Assembly (NCBI GenBank): GCA_014905635.1
Contig: JABVCE010000037.1
Coordinates: forward strand, 186,001-250,000
DNA from: Scenedesmus sp. PABB004
Taxonomy: Eukaryota
Direction: 5' to 3'
DNA length: 64,000 nucleotides
Position numbers and translations under genes: made by a program. Under the pieces are notes generated by a model. That model did not search any database, was not told the origin of the DNA, and saw only the letters and a list, made by a program, of their open reading frames with translations. This document shows positions 12,925 to 33,444 of the stretch, in pieces. Position 1 is the stretch's first letter, and every line of letters begins with the position of its first letter.

Positions 12925-13517
12925 CACTGCATGCCCCGCCGTGTGATGGGACGCGTCGCACCCCCGGTCACGCCCCCTGCGCGGCTGTGTGGCTGACGTG
13001 GCCATATGGGTCGCCGCCCTCATGAGGTGATCACCTGGTCATGATTTGAATGAACTCCAGGAACTCCACCTGGCCGCTGCCGTCGGCGTCCACCTCGGCC
13101 AGCAGCGCCTCCGCCTCCGCCTTGCGCACGCGCAGGCCCAGCAGCTGCCGGCGTTGCGCAACGCCCGCATGCAGGCGCGGAGCGGCGCGGCAGCAGGCGT
13201 CGGCGCGCGCGCGGCCGGCAGCCAGCACGCGCAGCGCACAGCCAGCATGCGCGCGGGGGCGGGGCCCATCGGCGGCGGACCTGGAACGCGGCGCCGAGCT
13301 CGTCCGCGTCGATCGCGCCCGAGCCGTCGGCGTCCATGAGCTCGAAGCACTCCTGCAGCTGCTGCTTCTGCTCCGCGCTGAGCCGCGGGCGCAGCGACTT
13401 GCCGCGCTTGCGCAGCCACGCCGCGACGTGCACCGCCGTCAGCGCGTCGTGCTCGCTGAGCGTCTTGGCGAGGCTGGGCGCGACCGCGCCCGCGGCGCCG
13501 CCGGCGCTGCGTGCCAT
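11230..13517 (-). CDS. EF-hand (calmodulin/centrin-like) protein with a C-terminal extension
   Basis: ATG 13517. LSAEQKQQLQECFELMDADGSGAIDADELGAAFQ spliced to LLGLRVRKAEAEALLAEVDADGSGQVEFLEFIQIMT gives two canonical EF loops. Later exons include VPFALLATAYRRKRLMAALI. The 3' end is uncertain. Confidence 0.75.
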
Positions 13518-14025
13518 ATGCTGCCCTGGGCGGTGCCACGCTTCAACGCTCGTCCGCCCGCCCGCCGCCCGCTCCGGCCGCCGGCGCGCCGCGCGCCTGC
13601 CGGCGTGCGTGCAGTCCAGGCAGTTGCCGGCGGAGCTGACGGAGGCGGAGCCGCGGGCGGCCGCCCGGCAGGCTCGCGCGCGGTCAGCAGCGGCGGCGAG
13701 CTGAGCGTCGGCGCGCTCGTTGGCGACGGCGCCGGGGGCTCGGGGCTGCGTCGCGCGGGTGCGTCCTGCGGCAGCGACGGCCCGCGTCGCTGACCTGCGG
13801 GCTGGGCATTTGGAGAGGCTTTTCGCCGGCGCTTGAACCGCCAACTTGACCACGGGCGAACGTGCGCGCGCGTCGCACCGCGCCCGCCTGGCCACGCTCA
13901 CCAGACCCGCGCCCTCACCAACACCTGTCCGCGCCGCTCCCGAAGCCCGGCCCATCGCCCACGATCGCAGCCCGGCAGCTCGTCCATCTCTCGTGCCCCC
14001 AACAACGGCCCCGCACCGCGCAGCG

Positions 14026-15022
14026 ATGAAGCGCACCACCCGGGAGTTCTGCGCGTCGTTTGAGCAGCAGCTCAAGGCCGTCAGGCCGCAGACGGGTGCG
14101 GCGCGGCGGCGGCGGCGGCAGCGAGAGCTTGAGCTCAACAACGCACCGTGGCGCCGCTCGCTCGGCGCGCCCGACCCCCCGCCGCCGCGGCCGTCCGCTC
14201 GCGCAGTCAATCCCTTTGCGCTGATGATGGAGGCGGCGGCGCACCAGCACCACGAGCAGCCGCACGAGCCGCAGCAGCGGCAGCACGCGGCGCGCCCGCT
14301 CCGCGCGCGCGGGTGCCACGGCGCGGTCGTCCCCTGCGCGCACTGCGGGTGCGGCCTGGCCGAGCGCGGTGCGGCGCTCTGCTTCGCCTGCAAGGGCGTG
14401 TACTGCGCCAGCTGCAGCGTGGCCAACTACGACGCGCGCGAGGACCGCGTGTTCTGCCTCGACTGCTTTTCGGACGGCGGCGGCGGCGTGAGTGGCGGGG
14501 GCCGGCGCGGGAGCTGCGCGCGCGCGCGGCAAACAGAAGCCAGCGTCGACGCCCACGCAGCGCGGGAGGTCGGCCCCGGCGCCTGACCCCCCCCCCCCCC
14601 CCCCCCCCCCCCCGCCGCTGCGCCGCGCCGCCATGCCGCAGTCGCCCGCCTGCTGCGCGTCGGACGCGCTCGAGCTCGGGGGCGGCTTCGACGCGGCGCA
14701 CGCCGACACGCCCGGCAGCGGCGCGGCGGGCAGCGGCGGCTCCCGGGGCAGCCTCATGCGCGCGTGCAGCCGCGCCGCGTCGGCGGCGGCCGCGTCGATG
14801 GCGGCGGCGGGCGGCGGCACGCCGTTTGGCAGCAGCAGCCTCGGCGGCGCCGGCGCGGGCGGCGCCGGCGCGCTCGCCTGGGACGGCGCAGCCTCGGCCT
14901 CCCCGCTCGGGCGCGGCGGCGCGGCAGCGCTGCTGGCGACGTCGCCGGTGATGCCGTTTATGGGTGCCTGCACCGACGGCTACGTCGGCCTCGCCGCGCG
15001 CGTCGTCGGGGCGGGCTACTGA
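14026..15022 (+). CDS. Siva-like Cys-rich zinc-finger protein, 3 exons
   Basis: MKRTTREFCASFEQQLK...; exon 2 has CAHCGC...CFACKGVYCASCSVANYDAREDRVFCLDC; a phase-0 intron (~14488-14641) leads to exon 3, which ends in TGA at 15022. Confidence 0.65.
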
Positions 15023-15336
15023 GTCGGTGGCAGCGCAGCAGCTGGTCGGGCGCGGGCGGCGCGGTTTTGCTTGCTGGGCCCTGGTAACAGGGGCGGCGTG
15101 CTGTCGCGTGCTGAGAACGCGAGCTCCCGAAGCTCCAGCGCCCGGGCAGCGTCAGGGAGTGCTGGGCAGGCCTGGCGACAGCGCGCCATCCATGCCCGCG
15201 CCCTCCCTCGCACCAGCCACGCGATCGTCAGCGCCAGGGCTGCAGTTTCGTCTCTTGAAGCTTAAAGCCACACGCACGTGCGCTGCGGCGCTCGGCGCGC
15301 AGGCGGACTGCGGCCACCACCAACGCCGCGCCCGGC

Positions 15337-15651
15337 ATGAATAAGCGCGACGGGTTCAAGGTGCAGCAGTGCTACGGCACCTGCCGCACCGACGCCGCGC
15401 CGCCGCGGCCGCTGCTGTTCAACCGCGATGTGAACGCGGCGGCCAACATTGCCGCGCTGGGCCTGGCGCAGACGTTTGTGGGCGCGACCGCGGCGGGCGC
15501 GGCCGCGGCGGCCGGGGCGGCGGCCGGGGCGGCGGTCGGCGCGGGCGCGGCGGGCGCGGGCGGGGCGGGGCGGGGCGGCGGGGGCGAGCTCACGCCGCCC
15601 CAGTCTGACGGCGACGATATGGATTGGGAGCCAGGCGCGGGCGGAAGTTGA
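15337..15651 (+). pseudogene. C-terminal fragment of a TnpB/Fanzor-like RuvC nuclease
   Basis: KVQQCYGTC...LLFNRDVNAAANIAALG matches the zinc-ribbon half plus (D/N)RDxNAAxNI RuvC-III motif of TnpB/Fanzor. There is an in-frame stop upstream at 15256 and no RuvC-I/II was seen. Confidence 0.7.
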
Positions 15652-15950
15652 GTTTGAGGTCCCGAGGTCGGAGGTCCGAGGTCCCAGCCGTCGCCGCCGC
15701 CGGGGCGCGCGCCCCGGCGGCGGCCGGTGCCCGGTCGCGGCGGGTGCCGGGCTTGAATGGGTTTGAGCGGCGCCTGCGTCCGAGTTGCTCAGGACCTGCC
15801 TGCGCGTCTGCTCATGTGTGGTGTGTGTGCGGCCAACGACCGTGTGCACAGCAGCACGCTGCGCCCTCGCGGGGCGTCCCGCCGGGACGCCCGACGCGTC
15901 TGGGGGCAAGCGGCCCCAGGCGTCACACACGTGTGTGTGTGCGGGGTTAA
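15652..15950 (+). ncRNA. Candidate omegaRNA scaffold (structured RNA at the element's 3' end)
   Basis: Perfect 32-nt palindrome at 15693-15724; 9-bp stem GGGCGTCCC/GGGACGCCC at 15872-15892; stem GACGC-CTGGGG...CCCCAG-GCGTC at 15893-15924. All lie downstream of the Fanzor-like ORF. Confidence 0.4.
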
Positions 15951-16334
15951 TAAGAACACCAGCAGGCCACCTGAACAAGGTGTGCTGGCCGCGCCCGGGT
16001 TTTGCCGTCGTGCTGCTGTTGGAGCCTGCCTGCTGGTGGCGGCCGCGCCTCGCGCGGCCGTTCAGAAGTCGCGCGCTCCTAGTGCGTTGCGGTGCCCGGT
16101 GCAGGGCTGCCCAGCGAGCCCCGGGGGCAGCTACGCCTTCGGTTGTGTAGCAACGCCGCAGCAGCGGCGACCGGCGCGCCGCGGGCCTGGCAGCTCGCTG
16201 AGGCTGCTGCTCCCCCGCGACACACACAGGTCCAGGAGCGCCGGTCGCCGCGGCTGCTGGGCGCTGTGTTGTTGCTCAGCCTCCCGCTGCTGCTCGCCGC
16301 GGGAGCTGACGACGCGTGCGCCGCGGCTCCCGCC

Positions 16335-17587
16335 ATGCTGCCCACGCTCTTCATCCCGCACGGCGGCGGCCCCCTCCCGGTGCTGGGCTCGCCCTGCCAC
16401 GCCGCGCTCTCGCCGGCGCTCGCGGGCCTCCCGCGCCGCCTGCCGACGGCGCCGCGGTCCATCCTGCTCGTGTCGGCGCACTGGGAGGTGCGGCCCCGCG
16501 GGCGGCCGCAGCTCGCTGGCGCCGCCGACACCGCCCCTGTCGACGCACGCTCGCGCACGCGCACGCGCGCGGCAGGAGGCGGAGCCAACGCTCACGTCGA
16601 GCGCGGCGCCGTCCCTTGTCTACGACTACGCTGGCTTCCCTCCTGCAGCATACGAGCTGACCTACCCCGCCCCGGGCAGCCCCGAGCTCGCGCAGCGCGC
16701 GGCGGCGCTGCTGCGGTGCGCGCCCGCGCGCCCGCGCGCGCGCCGCGCGACAGGCCCGCGAGAGGCCCGCCCGCGCGAGCCGCCGCCGCCGCCGCCGCCG
16801 CGGCGCAGGGGCGCGGGCTTTGACGCCCGCCTGGACGCGGCGCGCGGCCTCGACCACGGCGCGTACGTGCCGCTGCTGCTCATGTGGCCAGACGCGGAGC
16901 TGCCGGTGGTGCAGCTGTCGCTCAAGGCCGGGCTGGACCCCAAGGCACGCGCGCAGCGCGGCGCGGCCACGCGCGGCGCGCCCCTGGCCAGAGCTCTCGC
17001 TGCGGCCGTGCCGGGCACCGCCGCGGCCGGCCCCCGTCACGCGCACGCGCGCCCCCTCGCGCGCCGCCCGCCCGGCGTCAGGAGCACCTGGCGATGGGCG
17101 CCGCGCTCGTGCCGCTGCGGTCCGAGGGCGTGCTGCTGCTGTGCAGCGGAATGAGCTTCCATTCGATGCCGGTGCTCGGGCGCGGCATGGGCCGCCCGCC
17201 CGCGGCCGGCGCCGGGCGCGCGCTGCCCGGCCAGGTGCGCGGCGGCACGGCGCGGCGGCGCCCGCCGGCCACGCGTGGCGGCGCTGGCTGACCGCCGCAC
17301 TGTGCCGCCCGCCGCCTGCGCAGGAGTTCAACTCCTGGCTCCTCGGCGCGTGCCGGGCGGCGCCGGCGGAGCGGCGCGCGCTGCTGGCGGGCTGGGAGCG
17401 CGCGCCCGGCGCGCGGCAGGCGCACCCGCGCGAGGAGCACCTGCTGCCGCTCATGGTCGCCGCGGGCGCGGCGGGCGCCGACCCGGGCGCCGTGCTGTGG
17501 GACGGCGAGGCGATGGGCGCCGCCGTCTCGGCGTTCGGCTTTGGCGAGTTCGTCAGCGCGCCTGAGAGCGTGAGCGAGCGCGTGTGA
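16335..17587 (+). CDS. DODA: Extradiol ring-cleavage dioxygenase, LigB / 4,5-DOPA dioxygenase family, 5 exons
   Basis: PTLFIPHGGGP, LLVSAHWE, VYDYAGFP, YPAPGSPELA, RGLDHGAYVPL, PVVQLSL, SGMSFH, AHPREEHLLPL. Confidence 0.92.
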
Positions 17588-17905
17588 GCGTGTCAGCGCC
17601 TGCGAGCGTGTGTGCGTGAGCTCGTGAGCGTGAGAGCGCGAGCTCGCTCGAGCTCTCCGAGGTTGTCCGACCTCGAACCCCGCGCGTGTTGCTCGTGAGG
17701 GCTGGCAGCGCAGCCGTATGTGCCATCGACAATTCAGCTTGACGCACGAGCAGCCGTGGCAGCCGTCGAGCGCCACGCGCGCGAGCCAGCGCCCTCGAAG
17801 CACGCATCCAACTGTCGACGCTCGCGCCAGAGCGAGCGCGCCACAGAGCGAGCGTGGAGCTGTCCCTGAGCACCATCTTAAGCTCCTCGGGCAGTCGAGA
17901 CGTCC

Positions 17906-18400
17906 ATGCCAGCCATTCGGGCGCCGCTGCTGCTGGTGGTGGCGCTCCTGGCAGCAGCGCGCTGCAGCGCAGCCGCCGAGGCTGCCGCGCCGCCCCAGCA
18001 GCAGCAGCAGCAGGCGCAGAAGCAGCAGAAGGCGCAGCAGCAGCAGCAGCAGGCGCCGCCGCTGCGCCGGGGCAGCGGCCCCCCGATGCCTGTGTGAGCG
18101 CCGCCCCGCCGCGCGCGGCGGCCGCCGCCCGCCGCCGGCTGCCCCGCCGGTGCCGAACAGCGCCGCCCACCGCCCGCCGCCGCCTCCGGTAGGTACGGCA
18201 ACTGGTGCGGCCCCAACTACGGCAAGGGGACGCCGATCGACGCGCTGGACCGCTGCTGCGAGACCCACGACCGGTGCTACGACGCGAAAGGCTACTTCTC
18301 CTGCGGCTGCGACCGCGCCATTGTGGCGTGCGCCAATCGGTGCGGCCAGGCGCCAGCCGGGGCCAGCATGCGGGGCCCCGCCGCCGCGCCGCGAGCAGCC

Positions 18401-29800: not shown

Positions 29801-32556
29801 TGGACCAATCACCGACGCAGTCGATTGGGCAGGGCGCCTCGTTGCAGTCAAGCACGACCGTCTGGCCGTCCGCCACGCACTGGCCGCCGCCGTTTGACGC
29901 GGGGGCTGCGGTTGATCAGGCGGCGAGCTTGCCGTGAGCACGCAGCAGCCCCGCGCAGCGCGAGAGCCAGGCGCGGCCGCTGCGCCCAGGCCGTGCGTGC
30001 TGCCTCGCCACGGTGCACCGTGGCCCCCCACTCACTGGTGATCTTGAAGGTAAGGTTGCGCTCACCAGGGCCGCACTGCTTGCTGCAGGCGCCGACCAGC
30101 CACATGCCGGTGCAATCCTGGGGACATGAGGCCGTCGTGCTGCAGTCGACGGGCGTGTTGCTGGCGACGTACAGGCGCTCAGAGGGGAAAACAAAGGTTA
30201 TCTGGTTGCCGCCGGGTTCGGGCGCGCCCTGCATCAGCTGGCAATCAAACGTGCCCTGGGAGACGTCTGCGCTGGCGGCACCGCTCAGGCGCAAAGCAAT
30301 AACTGCAACGCAGGGCAGCGAGGTACGCGCCTTGCACGCGGCCACGCAGTCGTCAAACCGCACGCCCTCCAGCGGCGGGTGGTTGATGGGCGCACCCAGG
30401 CTCTGGTCGGGGGCCAACGAGAAGACGGCGCCCAGCAGCGTGGGCGACGACGCCGGCCGTGCCGCGCGCAAGCGGCGGCCGCTCTGGGCGGTGCCGGCAG
30501 AGACGTAGCTGGGAATAAAGAGTTTGCTGGGGCTGGTGGCCGGCGCGCTCTGCGGCGCAGCAGGGCAGCAGGGCAGCGGGGTAGAACGTCAGGTCAGGGA
30601 ATGTTGAGCGGATTGGTGGCTAGTGGCTGCATGATGCGCAGGCAAACGCCGCCCACCTCGAGCAGCAGCTCGCACCAGCCGCTGGTGCCAAACCTGTGCC
30701 CAGAGAGGCAGCAGCGGTGCGTGATCAGCGGGCAACATGCCGCAGCTAGCAGGCACCAGACCACGCGGCTGCCTGCAGCTGCGCCCGACCACGCTCACCT
30801 GGCAAAGATGCATTTGGCGCTGGCAACGCAGGCGGCAGTGCAATCTGCGGCTGTGCTGGCCGCCGGAATGGGCGTCACGGGGATGTTGGTGCTGTTAATG
30901 TCACGGCCGGACAGGGTCTGCGCCTCCTGGGCGCACTGCTCAAGCGCCGTGGAGCCCGCAGGCGACACGAAGCTGGCCGGGCAGTGCTTGCAGGCCCCCG
31001 CCTGCTCTGCGTCGTTGTAGCTGTTGATCGCGCACAGCGTGCAGCCGGCGCCAGCGGGCAACAGGTCGCCGTAGCCTAACAGGCAGAGGGAGCACTGCGA
31101 GAGGCTGCTGGAGGTGGTGCCAGGCGTCGTGCTGCCAGCGGGGCAGGCAGTGCAGTTGACGCCAACGCCCCCAGGCGACCAGAAGCCCTTGGCACAGGCT
31201 TGGATTGCGTTGCCGCTGGCACTGCCGTAACCAGGCGGCAAGACAGGCGCAGTGGCCTCGGCTGCGGCAGGACAGCGGATAGTGCCCGTGAGCAGCGCAT
31301 AGCGCACACCAATGGTGCGGCTCGGTGGCAGCCAGTAGCGGCGCTCACGTGTGCACTCGTTTGCCGAGGCGGCACCCTGGACCTTGGTGGTGGTGCCAGC
31401 CGGGCACGCGGTGCAGCGCCTGGCTGAGTTGTAGCCGGCGCTGAAGCTGCCCTTGGGGCAGGGTGCAGCTGTGCCGCGCTTGCCATCGACGAAATAGCCT
31501 GGCTCCACCAGGCACGCCTTGGGCCCAGCGTTGGGCAGCGCGGAGCCAGGGCTGGCGCCTGGAACCTGGTCAGCTGTCACCATGTTGAGCGGGCTGCGAC
31601 GGCGGGGGCGGCGGTGCTGCTGAGCATTGGCGGGCGGGCATGCAGCGCACACAACGGCGCAGTGGACCGGCACCCGGGCTGGCTCTCTCACCAGGGAATG
31701 CACGCGACCACCTGCTTGCGCGAGTGCGTGCTTGTGACGCGGCCGTACGTGCCGTTGCGGCACGGCAGCACCATCATTTCGCCGCCCACGAGCACAGTGC
31801 CTGGGCCGCGAATAGAGGTGCGGTGCGTGAGCGGTAGATGCTGTGCGGCACGACGCTGACCAGTGCGGCAGCCTCGGGGCGCGCGCAGCAGCCTTGGGCC
31901 ACACGCATCCGCCTGAGGCGCGAGCCAGGCGCAGCAGCAGCTGGGGGCCACGCTCCGGCCGCACCTGTGCCCGGCGGGAAGCTGCAGGCCCTGTGGCTGG
32001 CCGCGCCGCCGTCAGTCAAGAAGCCGACCCCGCAAGAGCGGCAGGGCTTGACGTTCCACCCCGCTTTGAACCAGCCCACACGGCACTCCTGTGGTTCGCC
32101 GCCTTGCAGCAGCTCCCAGCCGGGCGCGGCCCCTGCAGCGGCGGCAACAGGCCGATGGGCGGTGGGCGGATCAGCCCATGAGCGCGTGCGCGCGCCCAAC
32201 CCCACACCGCCAGCGCCTGCTAGCATCATCGGGCGCCTGCGCGCTGGCTGCGTGTGCGCGCGGGGCCGCGGCTCACTGCAGTCGCCGGCGTCGCGCGCCC
32301 CCTTGTGGCGCGTGGCCACGATGTCCCGCGGGTATGTGCGGCTGCAGGGCGTCGGCGCGACCGCGCCGCCCGGGCAGAAGAACGGGAGCGTGCACGGCGC
32401 GCACACGCCTGCGCCGCGGTCCAGGAAGGTGCCCGGCTTGCAGGGCTCGGCCATGGTGTAGGCGCCAGCGGCAGCCGCGGCGCTGCACCACAGCGCCAGC
32501 GCTGCCGCCAGCGCCACGGCCAACGCACGGGCGGAGCCGCCACCGCTGCGCTCCAT
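26837..32556 (-). CDS. Large secreted Cys-rich mosaic protein: signal peptide, GCC2/GCC3 (ephrin-receptor-like) repeats, PAN/Apple-like and TSP1-spondin modules, and three Ig/cadherin-like repeats
   Basis: MERSGGGSARALAVALAAALALWCSAAAAAG; CPKGSFSAGYNSARRCTACPAGTTT; CPIDCVGDWSTVGATCSMTCGPG...AQFGGKECP; ANTAPSF...TATDDGAGTSGGTGSSMQSFTITA. Exons are joined by GT-AG introns. A single-gene model is assumed. Confidence 0.72.
27772..29617. repeat. Near-perfect 926-bp-period tandem duplication (27772-28691 and 28698-29617)
   Basis: Identical ORFs offset by 926 (28060/28986, 28084/29010, 28164/29090); one visible difference, GAATCTAGG vs GAAGCTAGG. Confidence 0.95.
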
Positions 32557-33444
32557 GCCTGCTGGTCGGTGGGAGCTCCGAGCTAGCTCCCGCGCGGCCT
32601 CCTGCGGCAGCACGGGGCGGTGAATGAATGGGGATCCCTGCACGCCGCCGCGAGTGCAGCAGCCAGCGCAATCCACATAACCGCTCTAGTTTGGCGCACC
32701 CGCAGTCAGCGGCCTCGCGCGCCGGCAGGATGGACCGGAGCGGCCTGTCGATGCGATGGGCCCGCAGCGCGTGCGCGGATGGCTAGGCCGCTGCGGGTTG
32801 ATTCGTGGACGTGCAGTGGGTTGGAGCATTGGCGGGCAGCTGATGCGGGCGGAGGAAGGCGCGGCATTGTGATTTTTCAGCCCAACTTCGTGACAGAGTT
32901 CGCACGCGCCAGGTGCGCCAGCTCGGCCTCGCAGGCCGGCCCGGCAGGGCCATCGCAAACGAGCGCAGCACATCAGGAAGACTTGTGGCCGTCCCGACCG
33001 GCGGCGTGCGGCGTGCGTGGTGCCGCAACGCACAGATGAACACAGGGAAAGGAGGGGGGGGGGGCTCACAACGGCGAGCGGCTCCACCCATGCGCGGCAG
33101 GCTGTTCGCGGCGTCGTGTCGCTGCCTCGTCTATGCCCCGGCAGCAGGCTGCTCTCGTGCGAACGCGGGAGTGGCCACCCCCGTGTCGCGGTACACGGCA
33201 GCGGCGCCCCGCGGGTGAAGTAGGCGCCCATCAAGCGCACGCCTGGGAGGGTCTGTTCCATGGCGCAGGGTAGCTCTCGCGTCGGTCGTGCTGCTTGCTC
33301 TCGCCGCTCGGTGCGACGCCTGCGCGCCACCCTAGTACCCGCGCCTCCGCAGCGCATACACCTGGCGACACTCTGGCCACCCCCCGCCGGCCAGCCAGAC
33401 CTCGCGTGAGCGCTCGAGTGACCGCTGCCCGGCGTTCCTCGCAG

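Follow-up and report, generated by a model that had tools for sequence, protein, structure and literature searches.

Fanzor and TnpB nucleases share a long defining motif, D-X(125,275)-[TS]-[TS]-X-X-[C4 zinc finger]-X(5,50)-RD (Bao & Jurka 2013, PMC3627910). In the green alga Chlamydomonas reinhardtii the nuclear, TnpB-type genes CRe-1/2/3 (CrFNuc, Fanzor1c) are carried by Helitron2 transposons (PMC3627910, PMC10530073). As described by Bao & Jurka, these Fanzor1 elements are often 5'-truncated or internally deleted with their 3' ends intact, follow a T-rich tetranucleotide that is directly joined by a variable 7-19-bp duplication, and end in a 3' hairpin with an asymmetric terminal repeat (PMC3627910). 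The guide RNA lies after the open reading frame (ORF), and 3' pieces outnumber intact genes, with 20 extra guide-RNA copies beyond the six nuclease copies (Jiang et al. 2023, PMC10530073). Here we analyze a short ORF in a 64-kb stretch of Scenedesmus sp. PABB004 contig JABVCE010000037.1 (the window; all positions refer to it) that probably carries the end of a gene of this type. The closest described situation is that of the truncated, 3'-biased Fanzor1 copies in green and red algae (PMC3627910). The locus resembles CRe-1/2/3 as a TnpB-type gene copy in a eukaryotic nuclear genome with its C-terminal part kept, and differs in having no T-rich target tetranucleotide, asymmetric terminal repeat or clear duplication; the likeness is one of description and not of compared sequences.

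The best explanation of the locus, to which we give a probability of roughly 0.7, is that ~15300-15651 is a truncated, dead remnant of a TnpB/Fanzor-type RNA-guided nuclease gene, of which it keeps the last ~105-115 codons. The fragment sits in a non-coding gap of 1312 nt (15023-16334) between two + strand genes. A reading made earlier from the sequence only had noted an ORF with CYGTC...NRDVNAAANI, an in-frame stop upstream of it and TTAA at 15262 and 15947, and direct reading and the ORF listing show that all of these features are present. The frame ends with the stop codon at 15649-15651, the ATG at 15337 gives 104 codons, and the encoded peptide includes KVQQCYGTCRTDAAPPRPLLFNRDVNAAANIAALGL. 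NRDVNAAANI occupies 15421-15450, and 12 residues separate CYGTC from NRDVNAAANIAALGL. The features of the locus are collected in Table 1.

Table 1. Features in and around the nuclease fragment, in window coordinates.
Feature	Position	Strand	Basis
In-frame TGA closing the frame just upstream of the fragment	15256-15258	+	Direct reading, ORF listing
Open frame, 130 codons plus stop; probable C-terminal remnant of a TnpB/Fanzor-type gene	15259-15651	+	Reading, ORF listing, TnpB model
Left TTAA, proposed element end, unsupported as such	15262-15265		Counts, shuffles
Approximate extent of coding-type codon-position GC	15300-15630	+	Sliding windows
CYGTC, two cysteines C-x3-C; possible vestige of a second zinc knuckle (candidate only)	15370-15384	+	Direct reading; aligned by no profile
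NRDVNAAANIAALGL, RuvC-III catalytic-helix motif of TnpB/Fanzor/Cas12	15421-15465	+	Pattern, model, profile
Ala/Gly-rich low-complexity tail from GCN/GGN repeats	15481-15600	+	Comparable repeats throughout window
Tandem array of four GAGGTC(C/G)(C) units, beginning 5 nt past the stop codon	15656-15685	+	Direct reading
Perfect 32-nt GC palindrome, 16-bp stem, 42 nt after the stop	15693-15724		Repeat search
Non-coding block matched by freshwater-metagenome DNA- and RNA-library contigs	15756-16153		Contig alignments
Right TTAA, inside a block continuous in relatives' contigs	15947-15950		Contig alignments

The RuvC-III motif ties the fragment to the nuclease family. The six-frame residue frequencies of the window (N 0.7%, I 0.6%, D 1.6%) give a chance expectation for NRDVNAAxNI of ~1e-9 per window and ~2e-6 in 100 Mb of equal composition, and for a loose family pattern of 1.1e-5 per window; NRDVNAAxNI is seen once in the 64 kb. 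The back-translated pattern retrieved 88 stretches from IMG/VR. The viral ORFs around them match PF07282 (Cas12f1-like TNB, formerly OrfB_Zn_ribbon) at E <= 0.001 in 86 of the 88 cases, most of them also matching PF01385 and PF12323, and the remaining two are fragments of 49 and 35 aa. Inspection by eye shows the layout C..C...R.W.C..C...NRDVNAAxNI in all 88 stretches and a continuation of the motif as L-x-LGL in many, where the fragment has AALGL. A TnpB model was made from 46 non-redundant sequences among the 61 full-length viral ORFs (at least 320 aa) and run unfiltered on the 973 six-frame segments of the window. Its only match is the segment 15259-15648 (25 residues), with an E of 1.7e-5 that is inflated at the motif by the motif-selected sequences behind the model; the next best segment has an E of 2. 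The alignment places FNRDVNAAANIAALGLAQTFVGATA on model positions 347-371 of 385. Because of the minute chance expectation, the PF07282 domain in 86 of the 88 carriers and the model match, the motif at 15421-15465 is, on sequence grounds, a genuine TnpB/Fanzor RuvC-III helix. The earlier proposal that a TnpB/Fanzor-type nuclease has left its RuvC-III end in this ORF is upheld. A 10-residue motif is thus usable as a family marker even where curated profiles stay silent.

The nuclease part that can be recognized amounts to ~25 residues, with an intact RuvC-III helix. Nowhere in the 64-kb window is there a RuvC-I, a RuvC-II, a complete zinc ribbon or the RNA- and DNA-binding N-terminal half, in agreement with the claim of the sequence-only reading that the ORF is a fragment only. 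The fragment matches the long defining motif of the family at its last element (RD) alone. The C4 zinc ribbon with its preceding [TS]-[TS]-X-X was not found, the frame having only two cysteines and no first knuckle. The spacing of CYGTC is C-x3-C versus the C-x2-C knuckle of the family, and PF07282 aligns to the fragment over its last 11 positions only (50-60 of 60) with 12.8 bits versus a cut-off of 26.3; the zinc ribbon that had been placed before the motif is accordingly not supported. The region 125-275 residues upstream, where the RuvC-I aspartate and RuvC-II belong, does not exist in this frame, which is stopped 55 codons before the motif. None of the 181 window ORFs of at least 200 aa contains a PF01385, TnpB, transposase or Helitron domain, and no further match to the TnpB model falls below E = 2 in any of the six frames. 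The fragment would then derive from the TnpB/Fanzor family without being a working member, and it is predicted to have no nuclease activity. The second-best model match (E = 2, non-significant), at 17699-17866 on the + strand, contains a zinc-ribbon-like SKHASNC...ERAWSCP; lying 2.3 kb downstream of the fragment, it is most likely due to chance.

Prokaryotic and phage TnpBs (IS200/IS605, IS607; PF07282, PF01385, PF12323) have the identical NRDVNAAxNI followed by x-x-LGL, and the motif likewise stands near the C terminus with a short tail behind it. The alignment with them covers only ~25 residues, and the fragment differs from them in lacking the C4 zinc ribbon and RuvC-I/II, in its eukaryotic host and in its host-type codon usage. 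In addition, its C-x3-C pair lies 12 residues before NRD (14 before RD) versus 2-4 in the phage TnpBs inspected.

Several points weigh against the assignment of the fragment to a TnpB/Fanzor gene, the motif-selected make-up of the TnpB model among them. The curated profiles all stay below their thresholds: with the 74- or 130-aa pieces, nothing for TnpB came from Pfam, NCBIfam or PDB. No relative of the fragment was found by phmmer in 1.84 billion representative proteins, and the parent family is thus inferred. Related loci were confirmed in none of the 102 pattern matches in viral contigs, none of the 592 in metagenome contigs and none of the 581 in prokaryote genomes. The frame is intact over 130 codons and strongly biased in its codons, as would also be expected if it were still translated. 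Finally, the choice of Fanzor over bacterial or viral TnpB follows only from the eukaryotic host and the codon usage.

The profile check proposed for the ORF succeeded in part: the TnpB model matches, and with a 23-aa piece PF07282 is the sole Pfam family listed, at a sub-threshold E of 0.14, but Pfam returned no TnpB family with the 48-, 74- or 130-aa pieces. A Pfam match to DUF3482 (20 bits, below its cut-off) falls on the Ala-rich part and was read as compositional. NCBIfam gave nothing relevant to the fragment, and phmmer with 74 and 25 aa found no PDB entry at E <= 10. Among the PHROGs, the 'transposase' families phrog_506 (E 0.08-0.16, C-terminal match) and phrog_12300 (E 1.1) were returned, and unrelated families score similarly weakly. 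The short-piece Pfam match and the PHROGs matches give independent, weak support. The four phmmer matches in the representative proteins are long tandem-repeat proteins, which we read as scored by repetition. A word-indexed protein search produced 695 'longer' candidates, none with E <= 0.01, and 229 'near'-length candidates, none with E <= 1. tblastn of the fragment against plasmids gave no match at E <= 10, and the back-translated 14-residue motif string occurs exactly in none of the genomes of the 185,579 species in the prokaryote collection. As to whether an intact family exists in the organism, the absence of relatives from these collections is evidence in neither direction.

The codon-position signal bears on the age and state of the fragment. 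GC at the three codon positions is 0.65/0.48/0.92 over 15337-15480, where 44 of the 48 third positions are G or C (P = 0.002 versus the local 0.74); equally periodic 144-nt windows number 115 of 5322 across the whole 64 kb. Over 15300-15630 the third-position GC is ~0.94 in the frame of the ORF, and the flanks have ~0.70-0.76 in all phases, the coding-phase signal being absent on either side. A long-neutral relic should have lost this signal, and the retained extreme third-position GC of the host therefore suggests that the loss was fairly recent or that the piece is still read. A recent cut-off from a host-adapted gene is more likely than a piece still read, because no splice joint enters the frame, the RNA-library depth over the fragment is at most 1.2 and the searched collections hold no similar protein. 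The remnant may descend from a transposon-borne Fanzor copy that had long been resident in the genome and lost its 5' part or an internal stretch. Truncation at the 5' end has a precedent, since it is common among the C. reinhardtii Fanzor1 copies (PMC3627910).

As a separate observation, real exons of the window (e.g. 14492-15022 and 16335-16500) have third-position GC of 0.94-1.0 versus ~0.70-0.76 in non-coding DNA. In this genome, reading frames and exon ends can be told from the GC phase alone.

Freshwater metagenome runs carry parts of the locus, with at most 0.23 of the sampled words in any of them. The contigs of run X1, aligned to 13000-18000, match 14876-15104, 15310-15478 and 15780-16152; the second of these has three differences from the window, and the one listed, 15354 G>C, is synonymous (GGG>GGC). 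Downstream of the fragment, the block matches of four runs all stop at 16152/16153, two of these runs being RNA libraries from different studies, and all four have G where the window has A at 16117. The common stop could be a real boundary or an effect of the GC-rich repeats that follow. The block itself could be the 3' part of an element (the guide-RNA region), the upstream region of the neighboring LigB-type gene, or another RNA. A search of a metagenome contig collection with an exact 26-nt word taken from it gave no match.

A guide-RNA region retained downstream of the fragment is possible, because the guide RNAs of algal Fanzors lie in the 3' untranslated region and outnumber the genes (PMC10530073). 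Fold z-scores downstream of the fragment are -2.6 and -2.7 on the two strands. Rfam searches of 14500-16800 and 15640-16200 returned two matches only, mir-9014 (25.9 bits versus 63) and Proteo-phage-1 (17.1 versus 42), both below threshold and attributed to chance. The palindrome that follows the stop codon is perhaps a general trait of this genome and not a signal: perfect stems of at least 12 bp occur at 10 loci of the window and stems of at least 16 bp at three, of which it is one. A 9-nt direct repeat, CAACGCCGC, is found at 15321-15329 and 16151-16159. Its right copy coincides with the common contig stop and its left copy precedes the ATG of the fragment by 8 nt, a placement that is suggestive in a repeat whose length is at chance level.

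Two alternatives would make the fragment part of a delimited insertion. The sequence-only reading had proposed a TTAA-bounded mini-element at 15262-15950, a non-autonomous transposon with a duplicated TTAA target and imperfect inverted ends that kept the nuclease tail and the right end; we consider this unlikely. Transposons of the piggyBac type target TTAA and have CCC...GGG ends. The fragment is like them in having TTAA on both sides and ...GGGG-TTAA on the right, and unlike them in having TTAA-AGCC on the left and no terminal inverted repeats above chance. To our knowledge, there is no report of a Fanzor on a piggyBac-type TTAA element. TTAA does flank the fragment on both sides and is an uncommon 4-mer, as had been pointed out, but its occurrence is only mildly unusual and not decisive: the gap contains two versus 0.28 expected, a count of at least two being reached by 3.2% of 2000 dinucleotide shuffles (P = 0.032) in a post hoc test. 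The whole window contains 20 versus 5.3 in shuffles, none of 100 shuffles reaching 20. The ends agree in register at 13 of the first 20 bases, the highest value among 36 TTAA pairs of the window (range 5 to 12), four of the 13 being the palindromic TTAA itself. The best match between the ends is a 12-nt CA/GT repeat that contains one mismatch and is shifted by 4 nt from the register. Its local score is 19, which 31% of 5000 random pairs at a distance of 689 nt also reach, as do 8.4% of 7506 GC-matched pairs; the 'imperfect inverted ends' are thus at chance level. For each of three candidate right ends, inverted repeats with the left zone score at the median of random pairs. Within the window, 15262-15950 has no second copy. 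Contigs of X1 (15780-16152), X2 (15756-16153) and X6 (15852-16002) cross the right TTAA unbroken, inside a block that reaches 200 nt further, and two of the three alter it: X1 has TT>CC and a 2-nt loss and X6 differs at four bases in or adjoining the TTAA, and X2 is unchanged. These contigs probably stem from this locus in related organisms, with which an old insertion stays compatible. Because they run through the right TTAA, 15947 is unlikely to be an element end. An empty site had also been suggested as a check; no 15262>15950 joint is found among the joints listed for the relatives' contigs, where the patchy metagenome cover means that its absence says little and the joints listed have sides of 21-35 nt in GC repeats, an unreliable context. 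TTAA has zero occurrences in the main text of Bao & Jurka 2013 (PMC3627910), and it is a target-adjacent motif of GtFz1 (PMC10432273). The two TTAA sites are most likely not element ends, and flanking 4-mers with a CA-repeat match are untrustworthy as transposon ends. A 5'-truncated Helitron2-type Fanzor1 insertion like CRe-1/2/3, running from ~15330 to a 3' end at ~16150-16153 with CAACGCCGC as a 9-bp duplication and the block 15756-16153 as guide-RNA region, is also rather unlikely. It would account for a right repeat copy where the contig matches of four runs stop, for a left copy where the coding signal begins, and for RNA-library contigs of two studies that cover the block, and the published algal Fanzor1 copies show the same 5' truncation, duplications of 7-19 bp and guide RNA in the 3' untranslated region (PMC3627910, PMC10530073). 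However, ~3 chance repeats of 9 nt are estimated between the two zones and three of at least 9 nt were found, the duplication is preceded by CCAC rather than by the T-rich tetranucleotide of the CRe elements (PMC3627910), and no terminal inverted repeat is significant. Moreover, the X1 contig match starts at 15310, upstream of the supposed start of the insertion, and the contig ends may stem from the low-complexity GC repeats beside 16153.

The other alternatives concern the nature of the frame itself. That it is a living exon or small gene, either domesticated or used by the upstream gene as an alternative last exon, would agree with its intact frame and ATG, its host-type third-position GC of 0.92, the synonymous nature of the sole difference listed in the relative's contig and a pyrimidine-rich tract followed by AG just before 15261. 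We regard this as very improbable: no splice joint into the frame is among the joints listed, no coding-phase signal links it to the upstream gene, and at 78% GC open frames as long as this one are frequent. The RNA-library depth of at most 1.2 and the lack of a similar protein of any length in the searched collections point the same way. Equally small is the probability that the fragment is a horizontally acquired scrap of a bacterial, phage or giant-virus tnpB rather than the descendant of a resident eukaryotic Fanzor. In a comparison that covered phage and bacterial TnpBs, the motif and the LGL after it match theirs exactly. Against this origin, similarity to prokaryotic or viral proteins and contigs does not extend past the motif, all 185,579 species' genomes lack the exact 14-residue string, and the distance from the cysteines to NRD is longer than in the phage TnpBs inspected. 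A chance motif in GC-rich DNA would explain why no curated profile passes its threshold and is nearly excluded by the ~1e-9 expectation per window and by the TnpB identity of 86 of the 88 carriers of the 10-mer.

The remnant matters little alone, as truncated algal Fanzor copies have been described since 2013 and no DNA cutting is expected here. Its value is that of a flag: the organism would have hosted, or would still host, a Fanzor-type element whose tail is unmatched in very large protein collections, so that a divergent RNA-guided nuclease encoded by a host-adapted, extremely GC-rich gene might be present in the full assembly. The stronger proposal is an undescribed, very divergent Fanzor lineage of this ultra-GC-rich freshwater alga, with intact, intron-bearing copies elsewhere and with 15756-16153 as an unusually long guide-RNA scaffold reaching the right end; it is a long shot. 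The fragment would thus be an ordinary relic of a known kind, with a small chance of flagging a divergent Fanzor lineage.

The surroundings of the fragment are those of a eukaryotic genome. The window has ~78% G+C throughout, and its genes are split and intron-bearing, of the eukaryotic type. A domain search of the ORFs identified pieces of genes for TypA/BipA, a LigB-type dioxygenase, an EF-hand protein and a lipase, with further matches to photolyase, amino-acid permease and an ANF-receptor domain and a weak one to Msl2/3. The + strand gene upstream of the gap has third-position GC of 0.88-0.98 in the frame that runs to the TGA at 15020-15022. Downstream, the LigB-type dioxygenase gene has its ATG at 16335 and a coding-phase signal from near 16200. 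This signal starts ~75-130 nt before the only ATG, within 16200-16334, and the frame there encodes a hydrophobic, leader-like stretch, LLGAVLLLSLPLLLAAG, in which no ATG is seen. The true start of the gene may lie in an upstream exon, and an acceptor-like CAG|G site is located near 16228.

The upstream gene encodes a Cys-rich stretch at 14280-14480 (+) with four C-x2-C pairs (CAHCGCG...CFACKGVYCASC...CLDCF), for which Pfam gives nothing at E <= 0.001. Near it on the opposite strand, the EF-hand frame (~13280-13360) overlaps long open frames on both strands. Farther away, 30798-32685 (-) contains ephrin-receptor-like and TNFR-type Cys-rich repeats (PF07699, E 1.5e-16) and is part of the gene for a large extracellular repeat protein.

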